A stretch of DNA of 64,000 nucleotides from Hydrolagus colliei (Eukaryota), in contig CM068757.1 in the NCBI GenBank assembly GCA_035084275.1, positions 5,394,001 to 5,458,000 of the forward strand. Direction: 5' to 3'. Positions 1-58,619 of the stretch are shown here, in pieces (within the stretch, counting starts at the first letter, position 1; each line of letters opens with the position of its first letter). The notes under the pieces were generated by a model. The model saw nothing but the letters and a program-made list of their open reading frames with translations, was not told the DNA's origin and searched no databases. The position numbers and the translations under genes are program-made.

Positions 1-209
1 ATTAGGATGTACGTGGAAGCAGAATCAGAATATCCCACAGATGGTTGTATTTATTTACCACATGGTTGTCAGTTAGACATTACTTCCAAGTTCATTGATG
101 TATTGAAATCTCCCATCTCAAACCTCAGTTATTTTGCTAATTACGATGTCATTCTTTTTTCAGAGAACAAAAACTCACCATGGCTTTCTGAATGAGAACA
201 TTCATTGAC

Positions 210-430
210 ATCAGGCCGGCTCAGTTGATAGCAAGCTGGTTCAAGTATCAAACATTAAAAATAACTTAATAATGTCAGGACTTTGAACTCACATAGTTTA
301 AAGTGACACACCAATGCAGTGCCGGAGGGGGGGTGGCGGAATCACTTTCTTTTAATCTGAATGCTTTAACTTCCTACTGTTTGAAGTCACAATCGTGAGG
401 GAAATCTTTCAGCATGACATTATTGTACAC
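210..430 (+). mobile_element. old, decayed tRNA-headed Deu-type SINE (5' part)
   Basis: Box A-like ggctcagttgatagc followed by tgacacaccaatgcagtgccggaggg, which resembles the block seen in the copies at 18395-18650 and 19518-19563. Confidence 0.5.
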
Positions 431-469
431 TCAATCCTTCCCTCCCCTTATTCACGGCACATCTCAAAA

Positions 470-605
470 CTTAGCTCTTTGGATGTGATGTCCCATTTCC
501 CTTCCCCACCCACTTCGGCTCCCAACCCCAGCCCTGGTGCGTACCTCGCCCAGTTGTCAAATGCTTTGAGAAGTCCTCTGAATACGAAAGGTGCTGTATA
601 ATTGT
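470..605 (+). mobile_element. L2-type LINE 3' tail fragment
   Basis: Pyrimidine-rich stretch ending in gctttgagaagtcctctgaatacgaaaggtgctgtataattg, like the L2 tails at 9454 and 33200. Confidence 0.55.
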
Positions 606-2522
606 TTGCGTATTGTACTGTTGACTTTTCTTTTGATATCCAATGGGGCTCCCATTACCATGTGCATCAGGTTAGGCACACACCCTGTTCCTCAAAGGCA
701 GCCTGGCTCTATGGCTGGTGGGAATGAGCGTGATGGATCTCTTTGTGGTAAAATCCAGACACTCATGATGTTGGATGATGCTGTAGCACATATTTAATGA
801 AGGACAACATGAAGCACACTTAGAAATATTCAGTCTGTGCATTAATTCATCCACTGAATGTGCTGAGTATTTGGCCAAATACGTTTCGAATCTGAGTAAG
901 ACGAATTGACAAAGTAATCTCTGCAATTAATTGGTTTTGAATGTATTACTGGCTGTAAAATATATATATATATTTTAATCCTTCTGGATATCTATTAATT
1001 TAACCTCTGCAAATCATTTCATGCAATGATTTTAAATGGACCTTTTTTTTTCCAAGTGAGGCAGGTTTCTCTTTGAATCTAATGCATCTGAATGCCCTAG
1101 ACCAACTTAATTAAATGCGTTGTCTCAATTTGACAATATTGTGAGACTTTAATTTGTTTATCAACATCATAGATTACAATCGTGTAGTCAGCAAGACCAT
1201 AACTCTATCTTCACTTGCATTGAGCAATTAAACATTTTAATAAAATACAGTTCAACAAAAAAAATTACAAAAGGTTTTATTAAAGGAGGAAAATGGGGTG
1301 AAATTCTAAGTGAGTTTAAATTTACTATATTTATGAAGCATTTTACAGGGACCAGAATTTTACAGATTGTTGCTTTCAGGCTTAACTTTGAAGATGTTTT
1401 GCTATAGCTTCTAAAAAAAACTTTAGGAAACAAAGACATCAAAATCAAGGCTTAGCCCACAACAAATAGATTCATTGAAAGCATTAAGTTAAAAGAACAT
1501 CATAGTTACTGTATCATGAATTATTAATGATCCTTGATTTTATACCTTGGAGTTCTTATGTGCCAGGCCATATATTAGCACTAACCTATAGCTTAAGGCA
1601 CAATCTACAAGACATCATAAGAATATAGTCCAGAAAAGCAATTGTAACAGAATTTTGATGCAGCCAGCTGTTCTCTTATCAGACTCCTCACTGACATCTG
1701 GTTGCTAAGGTGTGTTGAGGTGAACTCTGTTGGTTCTGTCAGAAAAGCTGATTGCGAAATGCAGTTTTGTGAGTTTGAGTGATTAATGAAATAGCTTTCA
1801 ATTGAGCATAACATTCCTTCAATGTGATCAATGAGGTGGATGTAAAGCTGTGCGCAGATTCATCCAGGTTGTCTGATCTGATGAGGGGGTTTGGTCAGCC
1901 CATGAAATCATTGAAACGCTTTTGATTGCGGGGACGTGCAAGGTCTCTGAAGCAAAAGAAAAGCCAATGTGCCGCAGTCTCTAAACTCCCTGGAGCGCTC
2001 ACCTTTCACAGATTGAGCATTTGTCAATAGTAAATGCAGATCCCATGTCAACTCAACATTTTTCTCTCAGAGCTATGGTGGAAAAACCCTTCCATAACAA
2101 AAAAAATTTGCTTACAAATTTCTATACATTGTTGAAAATATATGTATGTACCTTATTTATTTTTGTTAAATAAATTACTGTTCTTGCAGCCCAACTGGGG
2201 TTCCTGTTTTACCTTGGAGATAGGCCCGATAAAGCTGTCTGATAATTGTTTGTCCACATTGTTTTTCTTTCCTCTTACTATCAACATCTTTATTAAAACT
2301 ATACAAGATAGCCTCAGTGGTAAAGACTGCAGGCATATTACTGCATGTCTTACCTCCATTGTATATTAAAATTAATATGTTCCTATGAATATTTAAACAA
2401 TGTACTGTACAATGGATTTAGTCTTGTTGTTTCTTGAGGTCAGCATATGCATCTCTCAGCACTGCATGTCCCTGCTAAAGCAGGCTACAAGGGTTTAATC
2501 CTAAAAGAGTTTGATTTTTGTT

Positions 2523-2772
2523 GAGTCCTATGGCATGCTGGTTGGATCATTCACCTAGCAAGCAAGTGGACCTGAGTTTAATTACCAGGCAGGGTGAAAT
2601 GTTAGTTTTCTTAGTCGGCATGCCTATTTAAAGGTAAGTAGGAGCCAAATTGTTAGATTGGCAGATCGCTTTTCTGAGAGTAATAATCTGTTCAAAAATA
2701 AATTGATTAATGATTTTTTAAAAATAATAATAACTTGGACACTCAATCTATGACTGTTTATGGGACACTGTC
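2523..2772 (+). mobile_element. tRNA-Deu SINE, diverged long subfamily copy (3' truncated)
   Basis: Head gagtcctatggc...ccaggcagggtgaaa and Deu block atgactgtttatgggacactg are collinear with the copy at 17493. Confidence 0.7.
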
Positions 2773-3004
2773 ATTGATTGTGAACAGGGAGCTTTTTTAT
2801 TCCCCAATGGAAAAGTATGTCAGGATAAACACAGACAAATCAATGTTAAAACCATGCAAAGCAAATGCCGCTTATAGATTTATTGATTTCAGTCGGCTAC
2901 AAAACAAATCAAAGATGCTTTGCTGTTATTCAAAACCATGACTGTTATTCAAAGAGATGCCTTGTGATTCATTACAATGTCAAAGGAGCATTTCAGTGTA
3001 AAGA

Positions 3005-3138
3005 TAATTAAAATACTGCAGATGATGGAAGTCTGAAGCAAAAACAGAAATCGCTGGGAACATTCAGCAGGCCAGCCATCATCTATGGAGAAAGGAAAGA
3101 GTGTAAACGTTTCGGGTCCATGACCCTTCGTCAGAACT
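3005..3138 (-). mobile_element. Penelope-like element terminal-repeat fragment
   Basis: aaatactgcagatgatggaagtctgaagcaaaaacagaaatcgctgg...aacgtttcgggtccatgacccttcgtcagaact matches, from memory, the short Penelope-type repeat common in chondrichthyans, and it carries a hammerhead core. Confidence 0.7.
3100..3138 (-). ncRNA. minimal (type I) hammerhead ribozyme motif
   Basis: Minus strand reads AGUU CUGACGA A GGGUC-AUG-GACCC GAAA CG UU: both conserved core boxes, a perfect 5-bp stem II and a palindromic minimal stem III; the 3' arm of stem I is degenerate. Confidence 0.75.
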
Positions 3139-3693
3139 ATTACTGACAGAACCATTTATTAGCATTTAGCCTAATGTATACTCTTACAGTAACTGTCAAG
3201 TCTAAACCTCTCCAAATGGTAACCACAACTGTGCGACGCAAATGGTTAGAATGAATTTGCAATGAAACTAAAAAGGTTTCAAAAAGGAAAATGTTCCTTT
3301 GAACAAAATGTTCAAGTCGCTGTCCCATAAAGTGAACTGAGGAAACGAATTTGCATTAGAACTCTTCATCATTCCAAACTAATTACAGTAATAGCTTCAT
3401 TAACAAGAGTAGTGCTGAACACAAAATACATTATCGCTGATTATGGCTCTGTACGTCACAAAGAAATTCAGTAGCAATGAAAATATTAATTGAATACATC
3501 AGATTGTACATTGAGTGCTATAACAATACACTGTAGTTGAAGATGGGTGGAACTAAGACAAAGGCTTTCTAACACTGGCCCTTGTAGGCATTGAATTTGG
3601 GCTGAATTTGTATTCTACTTCGAAAGATCATGCTTTCTTCATAACATATGCTTCGCCAGTGGTACACACGTTATGGATTTCTGAGTAAAAACA

Positions 3694-3729
3694 ATTGCGT
3701 CTTAACCTTTGGGCTAAGATCAAGTGGAG
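3694..3729 (+). pseudogene. 3'-truncated U2 snRNA pseudogene (first ~36 nt)
   Basis: ATTGCGTCTTAACCTTTGGGCTAAGATCAAGTGGAG vs U2 ATCGCTTCTCGGCCTTTTGGCTAAGATCAAGTGTAG gives 29/36 ungapped identity from U2 position 1, with mismatches concentrated at CpGs. Confidence 0.75.
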
Positions 3730-5124
3730 ATTTCCCGTGGTTTCATAGAAGTTCCAACAAGTGTGGTTCAGCCAGCATTAAATAACTCTGTAATGTCACT
3801 CTTTGTAGTGGAAATCCGCAGGCCTTGCGTCTTTGATTTGTTACTGAATGAACCCATTAATAATTGAACGGAGATCACAGCTATGGTGAGAGCGCAGCTA
3901 TGGTGGTCTGTCTTTCCCCCCTTTCTTTGGCAAGTTTCCTTGTAAGTTGTGTCCCCTGTTTTGCTGAGCCGTTGTGACCTTCGTTGAATTTAATGTGACT
4001 CACTTGTAAAGTTAGAATTATCCCCACATTAAGCAACAAATTGTCTTTAATCTTGCCAAGGTTGTAAACCTCACCCAAAGTGCTTCACGAGGGAAACTGC
4101 TAGGGGTTGTTCGTTTTCATTTGATTAAAGTGTAAATCTCATTTCATTCGGTTTTTACAAAGAACTGTACAGTAATTGTAATAAAGTTGATCATTGCAGT
4201 GATTTACCTATTGATCTTTCCTTCCACAGTTATCCTTGTGCCTTCCTCATCGCGCATTGCAGGATTCTGCATTCATGAAATTGACTTGAAATTGTCAAGC
4301 CTCTGGGAAAGCATTGTGGAGGCTTCCTGCAGAGAGTGTACACTGAATCAAAGGGCCATCGTTTTTTACAGTAAGTACACATCACAGTGAAGAATCGTAT
4401 CCATTTCCTTGGTTATGAAAACGAGATTCAAATTTTCTTTCTGTATTTCTCTGTCAGAAAATGCAGTGATTTCTTTTTCGGGATTCACGTAATCAGGTTA
4501 CCAACATGTGTATTTGTTTGCTAAATACCGAGGCAAAGAGCTCAAGATTTACTCTGAATGTGGCTTTGCCTCAGTGAGCATGAACAAATGTATGCTTCTC
4601 TTAGCTGCACAGAAACTCAACTATGAATGTTAAAAGGTTGGCAAGAAATCCTGCCACACATTTTAAAGCGACAGTGTTTGGGTTGTTGCGGAGTTGCCGT
4701 GGGTGTACTTTTGAAGGGGCAAAAACCCAAGGGACGCACAAAAATAATTCACCCTTAAATATAACATCTACACCTCCCCATTTTGACTGATTCCATATGT
4801 ATAAAGTCAGCACTAATTTGTTATGTCTCGGTAATTGGCAGTTTGACCTCACTGGATAAGCTTCCAGTCATTGCAATTTCATTGTTACTCGTTCAGCCTG
4901 GACACCTCATCCTTCAAATACACAGAGCACAGACAAGGCTGTGGAAAAGAAACAGAACTGAATGCAATTTTCACCGTGAGCTTCACAATGTATGTTTAGC
5001 AACATAGTGGGCATGCTGGCTGGCGTGCTTTCAAGGCTGCAATCATCAACTGGGAGTTCAGATCGTGTTTGAAATTGCTTCACTGCTGTGAACTTTGAGA
5101 TTGTTGAACTTGATTGAGATTACT

Positions 5125-5242
5125 ACTAATAATAATAGTAATTCTTGCTTTTGACATAGTGCTTTTTATGTCTTCTAGACGTCTCAAAGCACTTCACAGA
5201 ATATACTGTAAAGTGATTTGACCTTGTATATGTGGGCGAAAC
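5125..5242 (-). mobile_element. tRNA-Deu SINE 3' fragment
   Basis: taataataat...ttgcttttgacatagtgcttttt...tctagacgtctcaaagcacttcacagaatatactgtaaagtga is the reverse complement of the SINE tail. Confidence 0.85.
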
Positions 5243-5959
5243 TAGGATTACTCCGAGTTACTGACTTTTCATCATGTACATTATCAACTGCTATATATTA
5301 ACCGACTGATCAGTGTATTTTGCGAGCAGCAACCATTTATAAGTTTGCTGAGTGATCGACCAGAGGTGTAAATAGACTCTCACACAATAATGCACTTTTG
5401 TACCCTCGTTATCCTCTGGTTGCTAAATAGTTTAAGTGCTCTGAGTTGCCGTTCGGAGTGGAGGGCGCTATATAAATACAAGTTGCTGTTGATGTAAACT
5501 AATTGGGTCAGCGTTTGTATATCCATGTTGCAAGTTCCAGTACTTAAGAGGTCATATTTATTATAGTTCATACGTTGCATTTATTTCTATATTACTATCT
5601 GTGTTTTGTTTATAACTTGCATTTGTCGATATGGCTGCAAGATAAAATTTTTTTAAAAAATCTCTATTATTGAACTGTGACCTTTTCCATACACTGATTG
5701 CTACCTCCGGCATGAAAAATCCTTTGCATCTGCATTGGGCAAGGATTGCCGTAAGGCTCGATTCTCATTTTGCCGCTGAGTGAGTCACATTCTGATCTGG
5801 ATCAAATTGCAAGCAGTTACTTTGCAGAGAGCATTTCATGTAAATAAACCCGCTTCCAGCCTAGCACACTCCAGACTGACATGAAAATTGCACGGTGGTT
5901 ATATAGTCAATTGAAATGCTTAAGAGGGAGTTAGCCAGCTGGACACATGTGTATATATC

Positions 5960-6033
5960 GGCTTACTTTCTTCATTACCTACTTTACTTACTAACTTACT
6001 TACTCACTGACTGACTTACTAACTTCCTTACTT
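5960..6033. repeat. degenerate (ACTN)n tetranucleotide repeat
   Basis: actttacttactaacttacttactcactgactgacttactaac. Confidence 0.8.
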
Positions 6034-7094
6034 AGGAAGTTAGGGTATTAAGTGACATGTCAAAACGCAACATAAGCTGAAAATATGGCAAGAAAGACTC
6101 AGTGGCTGAATGGCCATTTTGCCATTCTTATTGTGAAAGTTCCTTTACATATTTCAGTGCATTTCAGTATAATATCAATCCAGCTCTAAAATCACAGTTT
6201 TATTCATTGTGTTTCTTCCTGCTACTTTCTTGGCCTCTGTCTCAGAGCGAGAATAAGCAAGGTTTGAGTGCGAGACCTATTTTTTTTGACATCTGGAAGC
6301 CAGGGACTGAACTGATACATTCCATTAAAATGTGAGCATTTTTTTTGAGACCTGACTTGGGTTCATTCGGTCTGTCACATTTTGAGGTTGATGAAAGAGT
6401 ACCATCACTAAATAAATGTTAACTGAAGGGTTTGGAGGAAAGTAATCTGTATCTATCTATAGTATATCTGTACTTACCGATTAATTCACTACCTTTGCTC
6501 TAGGACACAGCCCTGCATGAGGTGCGCTATATAAATGCGATTTGTTGTTGATACAGGGAACATCTGTACGATAATTTCCCACAAGAGCTAGAGTACATAA
6601 TGTTGTAAATTCTGCACAGCTGTGGAAGGTCTAATAAACGGAATGGCCTTTTCTCATCCCACGCATTCTTGCCATCTTCTTCCTTTAGATGTGGTGTTCT
6701 CTTTGAACACATTAATGAGCCTCCTTATCTCAGCTCGTGAGATTCATGCCAACGAATGTAACCTGCTGCTTGTAAGCACTGCAGTTCAGAGAACTATATA
6801 AAGGATTACAGCCAGGTACTGAAGCAATGCTAGGTCTATAATTCCTAAACCCTGGGGCTTAGTACTGATTTCCTTAATCTTCTAAAAGTTAAAGGAACTT
6901 CTGCTGTATGAAAACTATATGGGCCGACAAAAGTGACACGTGAAGTGCCAATTATTATACGGAATGTCCCATTTTACATCTTTATAATTCCTACATTTTT
7001 GTGCGATGTGAATCTATCCCTGCAGCTGATATCTTTAAATCTGTTATAGATTTTTCGCACACAAAATACTGTATACAGTTAATTCATTTTACAG

Positions 7095-7345
7095 TTCCTG
7101 TTCGAGTGGATGTTAAAGGTCCCATGGCACTATACAAAAAGAGAGGTGAGTTTCTCCTAGTGTCTTCAACAATAATTCCCCAAATAAAATAGGTTATTCA
7201 CTTCCCAGTCGTTGGTGGAACATTGTTGTGCACAGGTTGGACACCACACTCGCCTATAAAATACAATCAATGTCCTTTACAGTGTAACCTGTGAAGCGCT
7301 TCGTGACATCCTCCAAACATAAAAGGCACAATATCTAATCTGTTA
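7095..7345 (+). mobile_element. old Deu-type SINE, central and 3' part
   Basis: cctgttcgagtggatgttaaaggtcccatggcacta followed by the tail ctgtgaagcgcttcgtgacatcc...aaaggcac. Confidence 0.75.
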
Positions 7346-9453
7346 TCCATAGATTATGAAATGCAACTCAAGCTTAACATAACAAATTGATTTGAAATTG
7401 AAGACTCAGGATTAAGCCACTTAATAAGTTTCATATTTCTGAAACCTAACGGAGGACTATTGAGTGAGTTGTCATGGTAAAAAATATCTGCGGGATGTTT
7501 TTCTTCAGAAATAATGGTCACTACAGTGTTGCAAAGGCTTTGGTTATTACGCATGCAATGATAATTCAATTAATTAGTTGTCATTTAGGGCCAGCAGTGA
7601 GTTGTCATTTGCAAGCGTACAAATTATCCCCAATTATGGATCTTGTCAGAGTGAACTATAAAAGTGTCTCTGTAACACATCACTCAAGTTTTCAACTGAT
7701 ATGAATAGGTCCGCAGCCAGATATTAATTTTCTGCTGATGCACAACTTATTTTCCAGCTTAGTTTTAGCAGAACCGATTTCGCATTAAAACAATTACAGA
7801 TCCAAAGAAATTCTGTACATGATAAAGTAATATTTCAAAAAGCAATTGCGGTATTGCTTATTCATTCGCAAGTTGCAAACTGATTGAATTACCCTCCGAT
7901 TCGGTTAATGTTGCCGTGGGGATAAATTCCTGCAGTGGATGGGGTTGGGGAATGAGGGAAACAAAAACAATTCTAAAACAATCTTAGTTCAAATTTTGCT
8001 GAGACAATTCAGGCTCAAAATTGTGCCTAGGTCTAAAAATTGTGCAGCATTCTGAAAAATTTAAATATTAATTATCATTTGGAAGCTGGTTCTTTTTTTT
8101 AAAAAAAATGCAAAAAAATTCCTTACGAAGTGAACAGTGAATTTGAAGAATTGTCCACAATTCTGCTGATCTTCCATTTTAAGACAAAATAATCTTAAAC
8201 AGCAGGAATTTGGGATCTTTGTAACCGACTGGCAATCACGTGATCTTGAAACCAATTTGTATTCATCATTACATAGAAAAAAATGAATAACTAGTTTGTG
8301 AGAGATAACAACACATTAGAATTTTTAACTGATAATAACATAAATATCCGGGTCATCACTTTACTGAACTGAGTATACTGTTGTATATGATACTCCCAAT
8401 GTTTCAGCCAACAATCCCTATAGTAGCTGATCAACCCGCATGGTTGTTTGTGGTGTCTCGATGGAGTAAACCACTTTTGTGTTTTCCTACAATAACTGTC
8501 ATTATAATTGACAGTAACTACCTGCGTAAGTGCTTTGAGGCATTTCAGTGTGATGAGGTTTTATGAAAATGTTAATTTTTCTTTGTTTAATAAAAGTAAC
8601 TATTCGAGCTAATCTAAGATGAAATGCACACCATTAATCATTTGACACCTCAGGCTTATGTTTTTTTTACAATGACCCGGTTCAGAAGCCAAAACTGTGG
8701 GTTTTTCAAAATTTGTTAATGGGTATTTCAAGCTCCTTTTTGACAAGGTAAAAATGGTCTCCGTTGATATGTTGGAGAAACAGCCCATGGTTGATACCAT
8801 CTGTCATGTGTGACAGCTTTAATGCTTGTGACCTGATGTTTTATTGTCCTTATGTCTGCTTATCAGAGAAAATAAACATGGGAGGGTAAAGGTTTTAATC
8901 AACAACATGTATCAACTCTCTCGCATTATATTACATTTTTCGCTGGTGATGAATCCAAATTGGATTGAAATGCATAGGCTGGTGCGAGATCAATATGGGA
9001 CACAATGATATACCCATATCCAGTGTGTGAATAGTTTATTGGAGCACTGGTCTTGATATCTCAATCCCATTTACTTCTCTTCTTTACCCCTTTGTGTGTG
9101 TATTTATGAAGATGACGTATGACCTGCAATACTTGCCCTCTCACCTCAGTATTCCCCAGATCCTCCACTTGACACAAGACGCTAGGAAAATAACATGAGC
9201 AACAGCAGTGTTGCAACAATAAACTTGTTGCTGAGATCTGATATTTCCTATTGCCCCAAGTGAATGGTCAGAATGGTGTGTCGAGAGAGGTAGGGATTAA
9301 TTTTGAACCTTATGCACAAAATTTGCTTTTGATACAAACTTTTACTTTCAATTTTTTTATAAGAATATACTGTACATTTTTAAATCTTGAATTTGCACAT
9401 AACATATTTGGGTGCGCTAAAGATGCAGTGCAGATTCCTATAGTCATGTTCAG

Positions 9454-9806
9454 AACACAACAACAAGATTGCACTTATATAGCGCCTTTCACGTCGGGAG
9501 GACGTCCCAAAGCGCTGAACAGTCAGGTCTGGACCCGAGCGGGTGGGGTGGGGGGAAGGGTTGGGGTAGGGGGAAGGGGAAGGAGAGTGGGAGAGGAGGA
9601 AGAGTTAGTGGGGCGGCCGAAGGCGCGGTCGAAGAGGAAGGTTTTGAGACTGGCCTTGAAGGAGGGAGGAAAGGAAGGGGCTTCGGGATGGAGTTCCACA
9701 GTGTGGGAGCAGAGAAGCTGAAGGCCCGACCGCCAATGGTTGGGCGGTTAGGGTGGTGGACGCGGAGCAGACTTGAGTCTGCTGAACGGAGAGGACGGGC
9801 GGGCTG
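9454..9806 (-). mobile_element. L2 LINE 3' end (5' truncated)
   Basis: (CAA)n tail and gcacttatatagcgcctttcacgtc; the minus strand encodes an ORF2 C-terminus like IGGRAFSFSAPTLWNSIP...SFKASLKTFLF. Confidence 0.9.
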
Positions 9807-12800
9807 ATACGGAACCCACTATCTAAAGCTAATGCAATTTTTTTTCACAGTATACTGGATGAGGGTCCTTATATTGGGTTCAATAGTAGAGAAATTGCTG
9901 CTCCAAACCAACTAAGAAACCCATTGATTAAAAGTTACCATCACCTCCAATGCTGATGACTGGGAAAGTCCTAATCTCACTGGGATCTCAAAGGCAAAAC
10001 TCTGCTGCATTCAGTGTGACATTGTGTCAATGGATGTAAAAGGGGTCAAAGTAAGCCTTGTGTGTGTTTTGATAAGGTAGTCTTATGAACTCTGCAACGT
10101 TTCAAACTTGATTCTAGGAGTGAATTTTAAGATAAGGGATTGAATTCTACCAAAGGTTCTTCAGCAAGACTCTACATTCCCATTGTGTCTTGAAATTTAC
10201 TTTTGCATAATGGATCGGCATCTGCAAAGAGAAGTGCAAACAAATGTAGTAAAATAGTTCTAAACACTCTTTCCCAAAAGTAATAATGGATGTTTTCTGA
10301 TACTTTAATGTTCTGTGGTATGATTCATACTTTTAGCAGATAAAGTTTATATATCTAGAAGAATGGATATATCATTTGTACCAGTGAGAGATTGTCACTG
10401 TGAAATATTTAATTGCTTTCTTCATTTAAAAGTGGTGCAAACAGCATATTTCTACAGCTTACATTATGTCTATAACATTGATTTCTAAGACATTTAATAA
10501 TAAAGGTTATTAGTTTGCATCATAACATGGTAAATCACACACAGGGCTATTTAAACAGGGTGATCCATACAAGAAAATGTATTGCCGAAACAAACTAAAA
10601 ACGTCACTCTTACAAAGTGAGCTTATTTGAATCATTTTAAACAGAATACTGTCGCGTGAAATTGGAACATGCAGTGATATAAATAGAATAGCTTGCAACA
10701 AACAAGTGTTTTGTCACTTGTGAATTACGTGATCTCCACAACAAGTGGAATAAACATCACATCCAACACAATATATCTGTTTGTCGTATCTCCTATGATT
10801 TAAAACACCTTTTGCAGTCGTCAATTATTCATGTTTTTAAATTGGTCAGTCGCAGATTGTACAGATAAGAAACTTGTGAACACTAATAACACTGTGCAAG
10901 GTGGAGTCAGGTTTTGATTTGAATACCGTCGACTTGTTTTCAAGTGGACGAAAATACTTTATTAACATAATAAGAATCCTTATTCTGAAAAGGGGTTTCC
11001 ACATTTTCAATTGGTGCGCAGTACAGTTTAACATCTTTTCCATTTCTGCCTTGGTGATGGCACAGACAATCTGCCACAGAGCAGGAACAGAATTCAATGT
11101 AAGTTGCATTGGATACCAACAGTCTCCATCAGCGAGGCCCCTTGTCGTCAATCCACCTATCTTCAGCTCACTCCTCATTATTCTGTCAGGACCACAAATG
11201 GTGCAATTCTCGTTCAGCATTCCCAGAGCAGATTTCTGCTCCTTTGTCATGGTGTCTGCATCACTGTCATAACATCTATCTCATTCCCAAATGTAAGTAC
11301 TGCACATACAGCAGCTCAAGAAAAGCACAGAGGCAGGCAAAGCAGCATGATGAACCATACAGTTAGCTAAAAGGGTATGCGACTCGTGAAAGTTAGGAAG
11401 AGGATCAGGGTAATAGCTGGTGTAACAACATTGGGTTAAAATGATTTCATTCTCGATTTATATTTCCTGACATTCTCTTAATGGACCTCTTAATGAACCT
11501 AAAGGTGCATCAGTTTAGAACACTCTTCTAAAATGATGCACCTTTAAACGCTGACAAAGTGGTTTTTCCTGTGTGTTGGTAACCCCCACACATTAAAATT
11601 CATAATCGCAGTGATTTCAGATGCTGTATTAATAATCCTGTCCCATCGACCACTTTGGAGCAAAGAAAGGTTGCTTTGTCTGAGGTAGATGTAGGTTTGT
11701 ATACCTCGCAGTGTAGTAATGCTACAACATTTAGCTTATCTGACTGTTGATCAAACAGATTGCAACTGATGGTTTAGCAACAAGCCCAAGTTGACAGAGA
11801 TCTTCAAGGCAAAGTGCAACATTGCTGCAAGGGGCTCCATTTTACATTTATTTTTTTCTTCACTTCGTCTGATGTAATGTGGATCGACAGCCATGCAGAT
11901 TTCCCATCAAAGCTATCGGGACAATAAAAGCATTATGTTTATTGCAGTATTGGGGAGCATGTAACTCACTTATTTTGTTAACTTGTCAAACTAATCATTC
12001 GCTTTGGTCAGGCTGCTGTTTATCCTCAGATAACATTGGGATTAATTTCCCCCCATGTCTGACAAGAAAAGGGCAACGAGATTTGAGTAAAAAGTGTAAC
12101 GTGCTTCGAGGAACCAAATGTTTAAGATCTCATTCGAAAAGGGTTTGACATTTGTGCTGTGTTTTGTAGGGGTAATAGAAAAGGCCTAGATGAGAAAACT
12201 GATAGAATACAGGTCACTAATTTGAACATGAGTCCTGAATTGTATCCATGTTAACTGGATAACCTGAAGCAAATGAAATGATAATTCATGGATTCAACAC
12301 GTATCAACCATTGTATTCTATTCTCACAGGATAGTAGGTGCAACCAAGCTGTTCCATTAAGAATCACATTAAGAAGTCATCTTTCAATAGGCTGGGTCAT
12401 CAGCCAGTGAAGCAGTGCTTAATTTAGTGCCAGGAATCATTCCAGTGTACAGATTCCTGTGCTAATCGTGAAGTCCAGTAGATGCAACAGTTAACAGGGA
12501 TAGTGCTCAGTTGGGACTGACTGTAAGTGGAAGCAAATAAATCCTTTAACTGGAATAAGAACTGTTATTATTACTATTATATTTACAGAGTGCAAGTTGT
12601 TCATTGTCAGACTCCTGTATGTCACTACTTCTTTGAGTCAGAGAGAAATGCACTATGTTCATCAACACAGTACAAAATTGCTGGGTAATGAAAAGTTGCG
12701 TTTGGCTCTGTGCTTATCATTTCAATTCTGGTCCCAACTTGGCACAAGAGCATGACGGAAGAAGCTGCAAAGTATGAGAATTTGAATCCTCATCCACCAA

Positions 12801-12821
12801 CACAGTTGATGTCAAGCTTTG

Positions 12822-12878
12822 TCGCTCGGTCACTCACTCGCTCGCACGCACGCACGCATGCACGCATGCACTCACTCT
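12822..12878. repeat. (CTCA/CGCA)n simple repeat
   Basis: cactcactcgctcgcacgcacgcacgcatgcacgcatgcactcact. Confidence 0.8.
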
Positions 12879-14814
12879 TTTGTCAGCAATAACTGGAGCA
12901 GGATTAGTTCTGAGTGTTAATTTTTCCGCCTGTATTGAGAATCTGTGCTGATTTCTTGCTGAGCTATGTGTAACTTATATAACTATAAGTCACATGCCCA
13001 GCAAATAGCTTGAATGAAAATTACCTACTTGACCAAATTGCCCTGCATATGTATTAATATTAATATTTATCAGGCCCGTGATCGAAATTGAGACACACAA
13101 CTGCGATAAATGTTAGGTGAATAACATAAGCTACCCGAAAGAGCTCCCATATAGAGAAAAAGGCTCCACAGACAGACAAAATGCTTTGTTACGATAATGG
13201 CTTCAATTCCTGTGATGTATCTTTTTATTCACTTGTGTTTCTAACAAGAGTCAAATGATGGAGTAACAGGTGCGAGTACCGAACGTCTATCACCTCAACA
13301 CTCTCCTTGGCGTCACTGCAATTTTCAGTTCCTTTCTAAACAGGATCGAGGCACTGGAATTCTTTGATCTCACAGGTATAAAAATCAAAGGAAGCAAAGC
13401 TACCAAAAGGGAGTTTCAGAGAGATTCAGTTGAAATTGCACAATAAAGCAGAGTAGCATGCTCCGCTGGATTCTTGGAGTACTGCGATCCTTGCTGTATC
13501 GCTGTGGCAGTGAGAGGTGTATGTTGTGCCATTTTCAAATATATTCCAGCGGTAGCCAGTGTATGAACTGCAGCACCAAAGTGGACACTGTTTTGACGTC
13601 ACCTCCTCATTTTCAGAGATGGGAGCTCTTTGAGATGTCCTCCCCTGAAAGCAGCTGTAAAAATATGTATGTGGAAATACATATAAATATACATTGTAAT
13701 AAATATATAAACATCTTTATAAATATAATGTATGAATATACATTGTAATAACATTTTGGTTTTCATCCTTGTGATGATTAAGGCAGTGAGTGAAGGTACG
13801 TTTACCTGCATTATCAGAGCGTCGTTCAAAATTGGCGGCAGCAGGTTTCACCAATACTCATAAAATAATATTCTCGGCCAATATTACAACAGGATTCTTG
13901 TATAGAAGTTGAATGGGGATGATCCATAAGGAGCAATTTGATATATTGATGTAACAGACTTTTTATGGACCCATTTTATTGGTGATTCTGTGATTAATAA
14001 AGCAGTATATCATTAGAGTTCTAATTAAAACTGATGAAGGCAGAGGCTCATCTAGTATCAATAAAATACAATAAATTACTGCCTCCGTAGCAAATGTACA
14101 CTATTAAGAATAATAATTCAAAAATAACTCGAGGCTTTGCTTATGGCAGAAATCTAATTTCCCTTTGAAACTCCCTCATTTCAATGTAAGATTTTTGGCC
14201 TTGAAACCTGGTCAATGTGGTATGAATTGAGGTGACATCTGCATAATCTGGCTGAGAATGATACTCTGCATTTATTAAAAGATTCCAAACAATGAAACCA
14301 TTGATGCTGTTAAATTTCACTCAACGTTCACTTTGCCTTTGCAGATTCGTACAAAGTTGCTGAGCTCTCCCAGGAATCTATGCAGTTAAGCCGCAGGAGG
14401 ATTGTGTAATTGACGGCGTCAATAGGCAGGCAAAGTATTGGCATCGGTGCCTGTGGATGGATAGTGGGGGGAGTGTAGAATACAAAGAGAATGGAACAGT
14501 TTTCCTTTCTGACAGATGGGCGTCTGAACAGAGAGAATATCTGAGAGAGATTTGCAAGGCAGCATCCAGGTTCTCAGGCTCTGAGCTAAGCTCAAGGGTT
14601 TATAAGCAAAGAAAATGGACAAATGCTTCCCCACTTGACCACAAGACACCCTTACCCACACACAATGTTACGACTAACGACCAGACATTAGATTACCTTC
14701 CCTCCCACTACTCCTCCAATGAGGCACAAAGCTATCAATAAAAGCAAAGAATACCATTTGTATCTACGTTTATGAAGTGATTCCAGTCAAGAGATAGTAA
14801 TTAATCACCTCTTC

Positions 14815-16260: not shown

Positions 16261-16586
16261 GGAAAGCTGTAGCTCAGTGGTTAGAGCACTCGTATTAGAA
16301 GCGTGGCTGACTTGCCTGTATTTGAATCCAGGCAAGTCAGGGCAAAACCTTAGGTACATTTCCTTACTCCACACGCCTAATAATCATCTCTCCAAAAAAA
16401 ACCCACAATATTAAAATTGGTCATTTCAATCCACGACTGTTTCTGGGACACTGCTGTGCACAATTGGCTGCCACGCTTCGTCCACAAATATACAGTCAAT
16501 TCACTTTACAGTATATTCTGTGAAACGCTTTGAGATGTATAGAAGATGTGAAAAGTGCTGCATCAAATGCAAGGATTATTATAATA
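16261..16586 (+). mobile_element. full-length tRNA-Deu SINE (short subfamily)
   Basis: tRNA head tgtagctcagtggttagagc...tgaatcc, Deu block gggacactgctgtgcacaattggctgcc and tail aaatgcaaggattatt. Confidence 0.95.
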
Positions 16587-17492
16587 AAGTGGTTCAAACG
16601 CATTGGTGGGGAAGCTCAATAAAGATAGCTTCACTCACCACCTGACTATACTGTGATGGGAAATGTATCAGTCCATTGTCAAATGCCTACTCAACCATAC
16701 ATCAGTATTTCTTTCACATTCATAATTGACATTGTGATATGTAATTCAGCAGTTATGTTCATGTGTAGTGTCAAAACGACAATTACCTACAAGTGAAATT
16801 CTGCACAAGTTAAACTTGGATAGTGATGGTGCTCAGTCTGCCTCACTCTTTTTAAAACAGTTTCTAAAGGCCTCACCTATTTATATACCTGAAATTTACT
16901 TTTTGACTGAGAATATTTGGAACCATTGAAATATAATATCCGTCAACTGAGCCAAATTTGGGGGTATATTCACACAAGGTTGCACTTGTCACATACTATT
17001 TCAGATTTAAATCAGCTTTCGCCCACAAATATACAGTCTTATGGAGAATACCTGCTTTATTCTCAACGCACCCGACATTAAAGTCCTTCAGAGCAGGGAA
17101 CAGAGTCTCTACAATCTACTTCAGTCAATGAACACTGAGGAGACTTCTGTCCTTGCAACCCTGATAGTTAAATTTAAAGAGCTGCACATACTCTTTAATA
17201 AAATGAATAACAATTAAAAACAATCTATTGACAGTGCAGTGAACTTTTAATGCATCATTTATGAGTGGCAATTGAATTTATTCATCCCATGGGCATCTGC
17301 TCCACAGTGACGTAAACCCATGAGTTGGCAGAACTATTTGTTATTGGGATCTAATTTCTAGGTTCCAGGGTAAATCACTGTGTAAACACCAGCCCACATG
17401 ATGTACCGTAAAGGGTCACATGTGCCCCTGCCCAAACTCTTCCAACATCAGTGAGAAAGCATTCAGCAGTACTACAACCCACCCCACCCTTT

Positions 17493-17845
17493 GTGGAGTC
17501 TTGTAGAGCATTTGTTAAAGCACTCGCCTTGCAAGCTAGAGGCCTGGGTTCAATTCCCAGACAGGGTGAAATGTTAGGCACGTTTCCTGACTCCACACAT
17601 CTCTGTTTACCTACCAATAAATAAAAACCTGATGGTTAGTCAATCGGTGAATCATCTTTTCCGGGGATAATAATCCCTTAATAAAAAAATGTGGTCGCTC
17701 AACCCTCGCCTGTTTGTGGGACACTGCTGTGCGCAATTGGCTACCGTGTTTCGCCTACAAAGTATACAGTATACACTTTAGACTGTCTCAAAGACATGAT
17801 AAGGTACTATTCGAATGCAAGAATTATTCTTATTCTTATTATTAT
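17493..17845 (+). mobile_element. full-length tRNA-Deu SINE (long subfamily)
   Basis: Head with ctcgccTTGCAagc and box B gggttcaattccc, an extra ~65-bp internal segment, Deu block and TTA-type tail. Confidence 0.92.
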
Positions 17846-19254: not shown

Positions 19255-19563
19255 TCTGTAATCTCGAGACTTCTCAAAACACTTTGCAGGATCTTACTGT
19301 CAATTGACTGTAGTGACTGTGTGTTTCGCAAGTAAATGCAACAGCTTATTTGAGCGTGGCATGGAAAGCCATGAAATGATGACCGGTTTTATCGGGGCTT
19401 GTTAGGCTGGGATACGGAGAGGCACCCTTTCCTTTGATGAACAATGCCAACAGGATCCTTAACATCCACCTGAACAGGCAGACTGACTCGTACTTGAAGG
19501 ACGGCACCTTCGACAATGCAACATACCCCCCAGTGCTGCATTGAAGTGACTATGAGAACAAAG
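19255..19563 (-). mobile_element. old Deu-type SINE lacking its head (left arm of an inverted duplication)
   Basis: Contains rc(cctgttcaggtggatgttaaggatcc) and the tail region; near-identical to parts of 19731-19872. Confidence 0.85.
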
Positions 19564-19654
19564 GCAGTCATGGAACCCCGACAGCTGAATTATTCAAAAA
19601 GTGCCCTTTAATTGACAATTTTCCAGTTATTGCTTCAATTGAGTAGCCACACAA

Positions 19655-19878
19655 GATGTCAGTCTGAATCAGTTGGCAGCACTCTCTCTCTGAGTCATGA
19701 AGGCTATGGGTTCAAACCCCACATTATAGACTTTGTTCTCATAGTCACTTCAATGCAGCACCGGGGGGTATGTTGCTTTCCATGGTACGCGCAAATAAGC
19801 TGTTGCATTTACTTGCGAAACACACAGTCACTACAGTCAACTGACAGTAAAATCCTGCAAAGTGTTTTGAGACATCTC
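19655..19878 (+). mobile_element. old Deu-type SINE with head and internal deletion (right arm)
   Basis: tcagttggcagcactctctctctgagtcatgaaggctatgggttcaaacccc head; the middle ~150 bp is missing. Confidence 0.85.
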
Positions 19879-19946: not shown

Positions 19947-20235
19947 GTGGAGTCCTGTAGCTCAGTGGTTAGAGCACTCGCCTTACAAGCGAGAAACCTG
20001 GATTCAATTCCAGGCAGGGTGAAATCTTGGGCAAGTTTCCTTACTCCACATGGCTAATAATAATCCCTAAAAAAGAAAAGCCAATCATAAATTGGTCATT
20101 TCAATCCACTGTTTGTGGGACACTGCTGCGCCCATTGGCTGTTGTGTTTCGCCCGCATACATACAGTCAATTAACTATACGTCCTCCAGACGTGAAAGGC
20201 GCTCAATAAATGTAGTTTTGTTGTTATTATAATAA
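19947..20235 (+). mobile_element. tRNA-Deu SINE (short subfamily) ending in an L2-type tail
   Basis: gtggagtcctgtagctcagtggttagagcactcgccttacaagcgag head and Deu block; ends cgtcctccagacgtgaaaggcgct...ttttgttgtt. Confidence 0.92.
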
Positions 20236-20239
20236 TAAT

Positions 20240-20502
20240 AAAATAATACTCCTCACATTTATATAGTGCTATCCACGTCTTATCGACATCTCAAAGCACT
20301 TCACAACAACGTCCCAAGGTTGGGACCAGAGCAGGGGGGGGGGAGAAAACAAGAGGGAAGAAAGGGGGGAAAAGAGCTATAGACCAGAGCAGGTGGGGAG
20401 GAGTTGTGGTTGGGGAACGGAAAGTAGGAAAATTGACTGTATATTTGTGGGAGAAACGCGGCAGCCAAATTGGGCACAACAGTGTCCCACAAACAGTCGT
20501 GG
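20240..20502 (-). mobile_element. Deu SINE 3' half interrupted by a purine-rich insert
   Basis: Reverse-complement tail at 20240-20305 and reverse-complement Deu block gactgtatatttgtgggagaaacgcggcagccaaattg...cccacaaacagtcgtgga. Confidence 0.85.
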
Positions 20503-24190: not shown

Positions 24191-24383
24191 AATGCTCTAG
24201 TGACATAGTAACAAAAGTAGCCATTGTTTGGAATTATTACGAGCTCTGTGTAGCGTGGCTGTGTCAGAAAACATGGAACCTTGTTCAGCTATCTGATGCC
24301 AATACCCTTGTTAACACCCGATTCTGCTTTATAAATGTCACACAGCTCATATAAGCCTGCAGAATGTTCATAAATACCAATGG

Positions 24384-24692
24384 CCTGTAGCTCAGTGGTT
24401 AGAGCACTCGCCTCACAAGCAAGATACCTGGGTTCAATTCAAGGCAGATCAGGGTGAAACCCTGGGCGAGTTTCCTTACTCCACACTCCTAACTCCTAAT
24501 AATGATCCCTTAAAAAAAATTGTCATTTCAATCCACGACTCTTTGTGGGACACTGCCATGCACAATTGGCTGCCACATTTCACCCATGTATATACAGTCA
24601 ATTCACTTTACAGTATATTCTGTGAAGCGTTTTGAGATATCTAGTAGTCGTGAAAAGCGCTACATCAAATGCAAGGATTATTATTTATTATT
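24384..24692 (+). mobile_element. full-length tRNA-Deu SINE (short subfamily)
   Basis: cctgtagctcagtggttagagcactcgcctcacaagc head, Deu block and tail gtgaaaagcgctacatcaaatgcaaggattatt. Confidence 0.95.
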
Positions 24693-26789
24693 AATGGTGT
24701 TTTGTGTGCTTTTTTACTTTGCACACTTGACTTCAACATTTTATTTTTCTCTGCACTGGACTGCATTAATACAGCTAAACATACTAGATTGTGTGCAAAT
24801 GTAATTTTTCAAGTTAACAGCTCAGGAAATCAAATGCCATTTACATGTGAATGCAGCATCGAGCAAGCGGCAAAGAGAGACTTTTAACAAGTGTGTAAAA
24901 TTCTGGGTAACGAGATTATCGCTTTCTTAACGTATTCATATGAGGTGCTTGTACTCTGCCTCTGAGAATACATTTCACCCCTGATTTGATTTGGCTTTAG
25001 TCCATTTCACAGCAGTTACCAGAGGAAATTTAGCAGAGGAGTGCCACTTCTAGAATGGCTGTATTCAAATGGAAATAGCTTTGGTTTCCTGATCTATTAT
25101 CTTACTTGGTAACTACCACCAGTGATTGCTATCACTGCTGTGCTGTTCTTCACGAGTACTGTCAGAGGTCCCAACCATCCATGAATTACCAGAATTATTC
25201 CTGATTTCCTTCAATTGTTCCGCACTCGTGATTAATATCCACCATGATATGGAAACAGAGTTTCGCTCCCAGTGTAAGGTGAGTGCAATTGGGAATACTC
25301 CATCCATACACACAGACAATCAGTAAATACAGGCTTGAGTGCAATATTTGGTTCAGTGGTGGTCAAGTGACCCAGTCGTAGTTTTGGGTATCTAGAAGGT
25401 GCCCAGGAGATGGATGGATTGACTTCTCTCCTGGTTTCCCCTCACTCTGTCTATACTGGATTAGGACAGCCACAACAGTAACTCAAGATGACATCTCAGA
25501 GCAAATTATAGCGATGTAGTTTAACACTGAAGTGGGTTTGGCGGGCAATTGAGGAGAGATGGAGAAGGGAGGTCACCATAAGGTGGTCATAGGTAGGATT
25601 TTAGGTAGCTTTAAAGTAAATAACCACAACAACAACATTTCTAGAGTGCCCTTCCAGTCAAGTGGGGGTGAGATGAAAGCTTATAGGGAGGGAGTTCCAC
25701 CAGGTAAGGGCATGGTGGCCAAAGTTGCTGGTGGGGCAAATAAAAAAGGGGCTTACATTAGGTCCCAGTTTGCAGAAGAATGCGTTTGGAGCAGATCATA
25801 GATAAAGCCTGCATCCTGCCTCACATGTTAAAAGAACAAACTTGATGACTCACCATTCCGCCCATTGCATTTTGTTCCGATTCACACCTCCTGATGATTC
25901 GGATTAAATTCAAATTAAGAGCGTACTAATGATCCACTTTCATCTGCACGGTCCTGATGGAATTTAACTTGTCTTTTTAATCTCCATTGTACTCCACAAA
26001 TACCTTTTGTTCTCAGAAACAAATTGTTTCCTACAGTTTACTGTACACCCACTTTAATTGCTTTTCCATCATTTTGTCTAATGGAAAATAAAGTGTTACA
26101 AGTGTACACTCACCTAGTACACTGGCAGTGCACCAGCTGGCAGTGAGTTTCAGTTACTAGAGCTGTGTTTAAAGTGCAGACATTTTAACACTGGGTGTGT
26201 CAGATCGGAAATTGCAGTAATCCCTGGCCACTGAACAAGGTGGCTGCTGTGCATGTAAAGCAGGGCCGTGTGGCTTTTTTGTGCTTCCCCCACTCATGGT
26301 CTCCATGGTGACCACTGCAAAAGGGGTTTGTTCGACTGTGCTTTCAAAGATGTGTGAAGTTGAGGGAAGTCAAAATGTGACAGCTTCCAGTTTTTATGAT
26401 TCTGCCAAATGGGAAAGTAAATCACACCGGGGCTCCCTGCATAGCGGCCGCTTTACCTCCTTGTGTGCACATCCAGCCACTTATTTTAAAATAAGCTGAC
26501 TTTTGGAAGGCATTAAGACTAAATTCTGATTGATTTAATGCTATGTCTTGTTTCTGCAGTGCAAGAAAATGTAGGCTTGCTTCACACTTCAAAAATAATC
26601 CTTCACTGACCATTTGTGATGGAGAAACTCATTCGAATGTTGGTTTTGCCCATTAATTCATTGAGGATTGTTACTAATATCTGTGTTCTTGGGGGCTCTA
26701 TTTAAATCATTTCCCCCTGAAGTCAAACACTATTCGAATAAATTACTGTAAACCATGAATAATTCAATGGCACTTTTCTTCCTACACTA

Positions 26790-38277: not shown

Positions 38278-38552
38278 GTGGAGCTCCTGTAGCTCATTGG
38301 TTAGAGCACTCGCCTTGCAAGCGTGTGTTTGAATCCGGGCAGGTCAGGGTGAAACCATGGGCAAGTTTCCTTACTCCACACGCCTAATAATAATCCGTCC
38401 GAAAAAACCACACTTATAAAAAAAATTGGTCATTTCAATCCACGGCTGTTTGAGGGACACTGCTGTGCGCAGTTGGCTGCCACATTCGCCCACAAATATA
38501 CACAGTCAATTCACTTTTACGCTATATCAAATGCAAGGATTATTATTATTAT
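38278..38552 (+). mobile_element. tRNA-Deu SINE (short subfamily) with ~45-bp 3' deletion
   Basis: gtggagctcctgtagctcattggttagagcactcgccttgcaagcg head and Deu block; cacttttac joins directly to gctatatcaaatgcaagg. Confidence 0.93.
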
Positions 38553-56622: not shown

Positions 56623-57253
56623 AACTGAAACCTTTCATGATTATCACATTTCCTGTCTTCTCATTTTCTTGGTTAATCTACTTTCTATCTACTTGTTTAT
56701 TTTAAGTTGGGAATTAATAGAAGTTGCCAGTTATCATTTTGTAGCTTGTATGTTAGCCCACGTTGCTATAGTCACCGTTCCTTCCTCTGTTATACTTCTC
56801 TTCCCCATCTCTTTCCTCAAAAGAGCTACGATCTTTCCTTAACAATAATACCACTCCACCCTACACCCAGCTGCTTAGGTCTAATTTTGTAAAATATTTG
56901 ATACTCTCTTAGCCCCATCTCATGGTCAGGCTCCACTCCCAGTCATGTTTCTATTACATCAATATTTTCTTAGTGTCACTGTAACTCTGTGTGCAGATTC
57001 TGTGTGCAAGAATGTAAATTAGATTCATTTTAATTTGGTCTTCCATTTGTTTGTTTGTTTACCTGGATAATATTTAAATGACAACATGTCTCCAATTATT
57101 GAAAATCCTGCTTGCAAACGGGGGTTCCTCTTTAATCTCCAAATCCTTTGAATTGAATGATCCAACTTTTGACATGACAATTTCATTACTAAGTTTGACA
57201 ATATATTCCAGAGTGCCACGTTGTTAAAAGTGACTGTTCTGACAGGCTCGTTT

Positions 57254-57556
57254 TAATAATAATCCTTGCATGTGATGTTGTGCTTTTCACGTCTTTTTGA
57301 CTTCTCAAAGCTCTCCTCAGAATATCCTGTAAAGTGAAGTGACTATATTTGTGGGTAAATGTGGCAGCCAATTATGTGCGCAGTAGTTTCCCACAAACAG
57401 TCGTGGATTAAAGGAACCATTTTATTAATTTTTTCTTCAGGGATTATTATTATCAGTCGTGTGGAGCAAGGAAACTTGCCCAAGGTTTTGCCCTGCCGGG
57501 AATCGAACCCAGGTCTCTTGTGTGCAATGCGCATGCTCTAACCACTGAGCTACAGA
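57254..57556 (-). mobile_element. full-length tRNA-Deu SINE (short subfamily)
   Basis: Minus-strand head ctgtagctcagtggttagagcatgcgcaTTGCAcac...ctgggttcgattcccgg, Deu block and tail. Confidence 0.95.
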
Positions 57557-58619
57557 ACAACACAATTGCTTAAAACAATGGCAATGACATAAGGAGATGA
57601 CGGTGTTTGGAAGCACTGCATGCTGAGTGGCTTGGTTCACACAGTGTCGCTCTTTGGAAAGCTGCAAAAAGCAGCAAGAAACAAACAGAAACATAATCAC
57701 GGACACTGCTTTAGATTTTACAGCAATAGGCGTGATGTGTTTGGCAGTAGAGATGGAGAAGGAAATGTTAAGAACTCAAATCCCATTATTAGCTGAATTG
57801 AAATCTTTGTATCATTCACAAAGATAATTTGTTCTGTGACTCCCACGTAGGTTCCAGCAGTCTTTTCCAACTCTAGTGCTAAAAACTTCACATCAGAGAA
57901 AAAAAATATTATTTTGGTTGTTCTCGATGTTCCTAATACTGTAATATAATGTTACTGATAAGACAGTGTAGTCATTATTACCACAAGGACAGAATTTTTT
58001 TTTAAATTGTAAAACCTTAAGAACACATTCGGGATTGAACATTCTACCCTCCCACCTTCACGAGGTCGGTTCAGCTGAAGGTCCAATTTTGTCAATATGC
58101 GTTTTCTCGCGTTAGTGTCAAACACTTTGAGATATCCTCCCGACATGAAAACACTAAGTGTTAATTGTATTTCTTATATTATTCTTGCTGCGTTGAACCC
58201 CTGTTTCACTGAACTACTGATTTGATTGTAAGATGCTTAATAACCAAAAAGGACATTTCAATTTAACTGGACTTACATCAGTGATATTTATCACATCAGG
58301 CAGAACGTTATGTTCCCCCCCCACCGCCCCCCCAGCCCCACCCACTCCTCCCATCATTACTATTATAGGAACAGGAGCCAGCCATTAAACCTATTTTTCC
58401 TGTTCCAACATTTTAATTGACTACAGCAGATCTTTTAATCCCATTTTCCTTCTTGTGATTGTTAGCAGAGCAATTTGTTTTCCTTGAGCAGTTCAGCACG
58501 ATATGTCATCGTGGTTTGTTTGACATCATCCCTTACTAGCATTCTTCATCTTCACTTTTCTGTTTTGAGTGCCAAAAAAATAATAATTTCAATATTTCCA
58601 TTGGAAACACATCTTAATC

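Follow-up and report, generated by a model that had tools for sequence, protein, structure and literature searches.

In the stretch of Hydrolagus colliei DNA analysed here, 64,000 nucleotides of contig CM068757.1 that we call the window, the minus strand at 3102-3138 carries what is very probably a minimal type I hammerhead heading a lone, decayed terminal repeat of an EN+ Penelope-like element (PLE). Taken alone the motif is unremarkable, as its ribozyme class counts many thousands of copies and this is a decayed one; the value lies in the family's record of ends. About half of the systematically sampled copies begin at the first bases of the hammerhead and none at the predicted cleavage bond, a pattern that is likely the trace of short cDNAs run off the 5' end of uncleaved element RNA.

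Hammerhead motif in the window

Positions are counted from C3 of the CUGA box (+1, window position 3134). The features are as follows, all on the minus strand:

3138-3135: 5' strand of stem I, AGUU; short copies across the family have their 5' end point here (A-3/G-2)
3134-3128: catalytic box CUGACGA (C3-A9), intact
3127: extra unpaired A between A9 and G10.1
3126-3122 and 3118-3114: stem II, GGGUC and GACCC around the loop AUG (5 bp, 3-nt loop)
3113-3110: catalytic box GAAA (G12-A15.1), intact
3109-3106: CG palindrome (3109-3108), then UU (3107-3106, U16.1-U17); stem III could form only between two copies
3106/3105: predicted scissile bond after a GUU triplet, by the established hammerhead numbering convention
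3105-3102: 3' strand of stem I, UACA (GACU in the family), with pairs 1.1-2.1 and 1.4-2.4 broken
3010-3138: solo terminal repeat of 129 nt (pLTR piece plus most of the optional tail), matching the family majority at 90% identity
3010-3038: optional 3' tail past the shorter family end, with loose contig ends at 3010 and 3039

A pattern search of the window placed the hammerhead core at 3109-3134, and its layout is that of the minimal type I hammerheads of PLEs: CUGANGA and GAAA boxes flank a helix II with G10.1-C11.1, and helix III is a palindrome at 15.2-16.2 followed by U16.1-H17 (here CG and UU). Helix I, 4-5 bp in this class, is present in the family majority sequence (AGUU/GACU), whereas in the window copy U and A replace G1.1 and U1.4, which breaks two of the four pairs; the family letters at 3105 and 3102 stand in nearly all of the depth of aligned contigs from four sequencing runs. 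When the 129-nt window monomer was folded, stem II pairs had probabilities of 0.96-0.98, and the predicted stem I pair probabilities were 0.00-0.10 for the window copy versus 0.46-0.66 for the family majority sequence. The self-duplex of the CG palindrome is predicted at -6.1 kcal/mol, and the AUG loop is likely a CpG-decayed form of the family GUG loop. Since half of stem I is broken and no partner copy lies nearby, the window copy is likely inert.

The first-pass annotation, made from the letters alone, had given this minus-strand reading with both boxes, the 5-bp stem II and the CG stem III, all of which match the sequence exactly, and its call of a damaged stem I holds against the family comparison. 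Its assignment to the minimal type I class is borne out by the structure above and by a structured descriptor, for which the motif at 3102-3138 was the single match in the window, whereas 200 order-1 Markov resamples of the window averaged 0.02 matches (4 of the 200 had one). The hammerhead model search that it had proposed thus came out in part: the descriptor found the motif, but the Rfam hammerhead models gave no match at the gathering score in the window and none at E<=10 in 2800-3400. A loose hammerhead pattern matched three times where 1.21 matches were expected in the window, which is near chance and not informative, and folding of the 51-nt motif against shuffles gave z=-1.0, likewise uninformative.

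The repeat family

A search of the genome (1.0 Gb, query 2980-3170) returned 3134 first-look candidates, and the 40 that were scored cover ~3010-3138 at 83-91% identity, in agreement with the monomer of about 130 bp that had been proposed. In 132 evenly spaced 10-kb stretches of the larger contigs we counted 31 insertion loci, or 23.5 per Mb (95% interval 16-33), and the suggestion of a dispersed, ribozyme-bearing family in this genome is thereby upheld. From this density we estimate roughly 16,000-33,000 copies genome-wide, if the sample is representative and with a few matches belonging to a diverged sister family. An exact 35-letter pattern of the intact core occurred 239 times and its reversed control not at all. 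Within the window and the 20 kb before it, no second copy of the family was found.

The systematic sample (L092-L191 and L250-L281) was uneven, copies being much commoner in contigs C1, C2 and C13 than in C3, C6 and the small contigs; the exact-pattern matches are about equally dense on C3, C1 and C2, and the unevenness may reflect clustering or sampling noise. A diverged sister family has an A-U pair at the base of stem II and a loop of AUC or AUU, some copies with a perfect AGUU/AACU stem I (L047:343-390, L071:3065-3112, L113:7663-7710, L124:742-789). In addition, a subfamily with stem II GGGUU/GACCC and loop GUA (L241/L242, L136, L168, L234, L130) seems to include the best-preserved near-full-length copies, which are ~88-90% alike. 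The whole 3-kb loci L218, L219 and L223 (G000 C30), and likewise L073/L077, are 99.4-99.9% identical at separate places and represent recent segmental duplications or uncollapsed haplotypes.

Judged strictly, 5 of 74 copies are wholly intact, 29 keep the core, and 69 keep the extra A between A9 and G10.1. The window copy diverges by 10%, compared with a family mean of 8% (range 3-13%). A test for selection was run on 40 copies chosen by their upstream sequence, after 5 of 45 that had no 3' part were dropped: 13 non-CpG core changes were seen versus 19.2 expected from base-matched background (P=0.09), and changes at the catalytic G8 and G12 affected 19 of 76 cells, those at the remaining CpG Gs 27 of 76 (P=0.22). 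Copies thus seem, as judged from their sequences, to decay at about neutral rates, although the corrected trend still leans toward core conservation. An uncorrected comparison of core and rest (4.1% versus 10.4%) was set aside as biased by base composition and ascertainment. In the proposed check for stem covariation within the genome, the signal did not exceed that of shuffles: across 62 copies 87.6% of cells were paired, with 7 double changes (4 of them G-C to A-U at 10.1-11.1), and 97 of 500 shuffles reached as high. One contig from organism B covers 3110-3504 with 5 differences, which suggests that the window insertion is shared with that organism and old, although the contig reaches only 29 letters into the element, short of the threshold of 31.

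Other repeats share the window. An abundant tRNA-headed SINE family lies at 16265-16590, 17498-17780, 19951-20310, 24381-24700, 38283-38550 and 57250-57568, plus fragments, with Rfam tRNA matches at five places within it; a decayed copy sits at ~2520-2770, just beyond the Penelope-like repeat. Nested long inverted repeats at 19266-19878 (104 nt at 93% and 58 nt at 90%) resemble a MITE or fold-back element.

The parent element

Longer copies extend upstream on the hammerhead's strand, through a 3' UTR of ~250 nt into a GIY-YIG endonuclease and, upstream of that, an RT with a YIDD motif, so that a single RT with a C-terminal GIY-YIG lies on the hammerhead's strand, as in EN+ PLEs. Read in translations, the endonuclease region has a CX4CxxC linker (CQRRRCNTC), a CxCxxC motif and His motifs. 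Pfam searches of five ORF fragments gave a weak, below-cut-off match to GIY-YIG (E=0.018) and none to RT, and a PDB sequence search with the RT fragment gave no match. A 179-aa piece of the RT, however, matched 202 of 600 candidates at E<=1e-10. Among those with names, shark and ray proteins came first at 60-69% identity, several with RVT_1; some of the more distant relatives also carry a GIY-YIG domain. The matches P0004, P0010 and P0027, shark and ray gene models that bear the names of host enzymes, contain this Penelope-like RT and are likely annotation chimeras or exonised copies.

All of the long copies seen are interrupted by stops or frameshifts. The repeat with its tail precedes the ORF, leading on into it by way of the 5' UTR, in 4 of 30 N-terminal loci (L241/L242, L230, L239 and L224) and follows it in L243-L246, which is the partial-tandem pLTR arrangement; in L241 an inverted copy of the repeat lies ahead of the leading one, giving the inverted 5' copy that, with the optional tail of 30-40 bp, is also known from PLEs. 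The Penelope-like origin put forward by the first-pass annotation is therefore well founded, the same repeat standing before and after an RT-GIY-YIG ORF. As the linker and the Cys/His motifs fit the description of Neptune elements, namely a CX2-5CxxC linker and a CCHH motif with a C-terminal EN (PMC8557442), the parent is likely an RT plus GIY-YIG PLE of the Neptune clade, a clade call made from motifs and not from a tree.

Copy ends and arrangement

Of the 31 systematically sampled loci, 16 start at -7 to +3, the 5' edge of stem I, and 0 of 31 start at the predicted cleavage bond (+27 to +33), ~32 nt downstream of that edge; among individual arms, 2 of 40 start at the cleavage bond, both of them second arms of inverted pairs. 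Thirty-five edge copies keep G-2 in 29 cases, T-1 in 31, T0 in 33, A-3 in 19 and C-4 in 15, and from -5 onward the letters are mixed. Contigs of three sequencing runs (organisms A, B and C), aligned to a long copy, exit the element at exactly G-2/A-3 into unrelated flanks, and among the best-supported loose ends the contigs leaving at these two bases number 131+129, 107 and 19 by run. The 3' ends cluster near +100 and at +126 to +146, the PLE tail.

Exact TSDs of 7-14 nt flank 10 of the 35 edge copies versus 1 of 35 controls, and copies with a TSD have A-3 or G-2, or a position just inside, as the element's first base; for the window copy no clear TSD was found. Neighbours within 500 nt are arranged head-to-head in 28 cases, on the same strand in 4 and tail-to-tail in 1, counted among 189 matches in 140 of 281 loci, some of which overlap. 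The four near-full-length copies with a leading repeat start at -82, +40, +83 and +87, none of them at -3, which counts against an RNA start at that edge.

The context of A-3 fits the initiator consensus (YYANWYY), and a TATA-like word lies ~30 nt upstream, with two mismatches to the TATA consensus. These putative promoter words sit outside the monomer. The upstream family sequence is pyrimidine-rich and ends in CAG at -4 to -2, resembling a 3' splice site.

In 4 of the 35 edge copies, as against 0 of 35 controls, the letters that open the element (GTTCTG) recur as a short direct repeat at a distance of 10-25 nt upstream of the 5' end; such repeats are seen at window 3147-3153 (minus strand), in L002 and in L026 (~20 nt in the last), and one of the four copies is an internal deletion. 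They may reflect re-priming at the RNA end.

Discussion

The pattern of ends suggests that the monomers are likely run-off cDNAs made from uncleaved RNA and primed at the tail. We infer that the element RNA would start at the 5' edge of stem I, at A-3/G-2, because the sharp 5' ends, the initiator-like word and the TATA-like box are all found there. Internal priming by the RT at the leading repeat's tail site, of the kind that the anole element shows in vitro, would be followed by run-off at the 5' end of the RNA to give a cDNA of 100-140 nt, which would be inserted alone or as a head-to-head pair. Its template would be uncleaved RNA, since the copies retain what lies 5' of the scissile bond, and the hammerhead of the active parent might, by analogy with published elements, cleave only as a dimer or with the help of protein.

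Here we speculate further, at a little under an even chance, that these cDNAs are strong-stop products: the PLE RT would prime at the tail of the leading repeat and run off a capped RNA end that is the first hammerhead base, about half of the ~20,000 insertions would be first products of this kind, aborted and copied from uncleaved RNA, and the pLTRs together with the upstream promoter would be regenerated when such a product is transferred to the 3' repeat.

Solo repeats could instead arise by recombination between the direct repeats of full-length insertions, in which case the fixed edge would still be the RNA start, with no short cDNA involved. Recombination or deletion is proposed for some solo pLTRs in PMC3846280, and both the TSDs and the head-to-head pairs would survive such an event. 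However, this would need roughly 10,000 full-length insertions, while the number of first-look candidates among 5'-truncated copies falls steeply toward the 5' end (2768, 137 and 61), 0 of the 4 surviving leading repeats starts at -3, and the upstream repeat of the element's first letters in L002 and L026 fits re-priming at the RNA end; we consider recombination unlikely.

We hold it equally improbable that the fixed edge is the 3' splice site of a 5' UTR intron, with the short copies derived from spliced or processed RNA. The pyrimidine-rich upstream sequence ending in CAG would suit a splice acceptor, and the intron of D. virilis Penelope stops at the 5' end of helix I (PMC4209133). Yet a common upstream leader or exon is found in 0 of the 35 edge copies. 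Element sequence lies upstream in 3 of the 35, two of them apparently internal deletions and the third a long copy that was misclassified; one pair of edge copies shares a flank, apparently from another repeat. The TSD-bearing copies, moreover, begin directly at the edge bases or just inside them.

We consider it very unlikely that the monomer, as a non-LTR retrozyme or SINE-like unit, is transcribed and moves by itself through self-cleaved or circular RNA; the retrozyme alternative had been left open by the first-pass annotation. The unit is short and its copy number very high, and a 2026 preprint derives animal retrozymes from PLE pLTRs (10.64898/2026.07.22.740005). Nevertheless, the sampled loci hold no head-to-tail arrays of whole units, with only the 4 same-strand neighbours among the 189 matches, and the window copy stands alone, so that a tandem retrozyme is not what we see; in addition, the ends are not permuted at the cleavage bond in any of the 31 loci, the hammerhead is minimal and not canonical, and the putative promoter is outside the monomer. 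Least credible of all is that the window copy serves a host transcript as a retained, functional cis element: its core and stem II have no defect, even at three CpGs of a kind that usually decays, and organism B appears to share the insertion, but stem I is broken at two places, the divergence is ordinary for the family, an intact core recurs in 29 of 74 copies with no sign of selection, and neither a convincing Pfam match nor a host exon was recognised in 97 open frames of at least 62 aa (window 1-14000 and the preceding 10 kb).

The window motif is a decayed member of the known class of PLE minimal hammerheads, which Cervera and De la Pena described in 2014 as residing in pLTRs, mostly solo and genome-wide, and as inactive when monomeric and weak when dimeric (PMC4209133). 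It shares with them the type I topology, a 4-bp helix I, the extra base between 9 and 10.1, G10.1-C11.1, the palindromic 15.2-16.2, the pLTR location, the predominance of solo copies and the opposite-strand pairs nearby. It differs in its stem II, which has 5 bp in contrast to the 7-8 bp of the Schistosoma families described there (PMC4209133), and in its GUU cleavage triplet. The copy number is above the ~4,000-9,000 motifs given there for coelacanth and Xenopus, which were counted differently, and cartilaginous fishes are not named among the hosts in the parts of that paper available to us (PMC4209133).

With the Neptune EN+ PLEs of Craig et al. (2021, PMC8557442) the parent has in common the RT followed by a C-terminal GIY-YIG, the CX2-5CxxC linker, the partial-tandem pLTR, the inverted 5' copy, the 30-40-bp tail and heavy 5' truncation, whereas the long copies seen here are all broken. 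The anole Poseidon element PAc (Frangieh et al. 2024, PMC11167929) likewise has a hammerhead near the pLTR-ORF junction and two tail-defining 3' points. In vitro, its RT initiated internally at two tail points, both strands were extended, uncleaved RNA was the main template, and the hammerhead cleaved only with protein present (PMC11167929). PAc belongs, however, to a different clade and its ORF starts inside its hammerhead, and the fixed genomic 5' end at stem I that we see here is not described for it in the main text of that study (PMC11167929).

The monomers also resemble non-LTR retrozymes (Cervera and de la Pena 2020, PMC7229834; Li et al. 2026 preprint) in being short, non-coding, type I, high in copy number and PLE-related. 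As portrayed in those two sources, retrozymes form head-to-tail arrays, mostly carry canonical hammerheads and are expressed as circles (PMC7229834; 10.64898/2026.07.22.740005), whereas here we see solo or head-to-head units with a minimal hammerhead. Our literature search, for which subscription papers and Repbase were largely out of reach, found no report of PLE hammerheads in cartilaginous fishes or of a strong-stop model, and the family may already have been catalogued.

The record of ends bears on how PLEs build their terminal repeats and on the purpose of their hammerhead. A fixed 5' end without ends at the cleavage bond is in keeping with the use of uncleaved RNA as template by the anole element, and a sharp end at the first ribozyme base, with none at the cleavage bond, makes a precise prediction for 5' RACE and in vitro reverse transcription. 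If true, the strong-stop reading would amount to a retrovirus-style cDNA step in Penelope-like elements.
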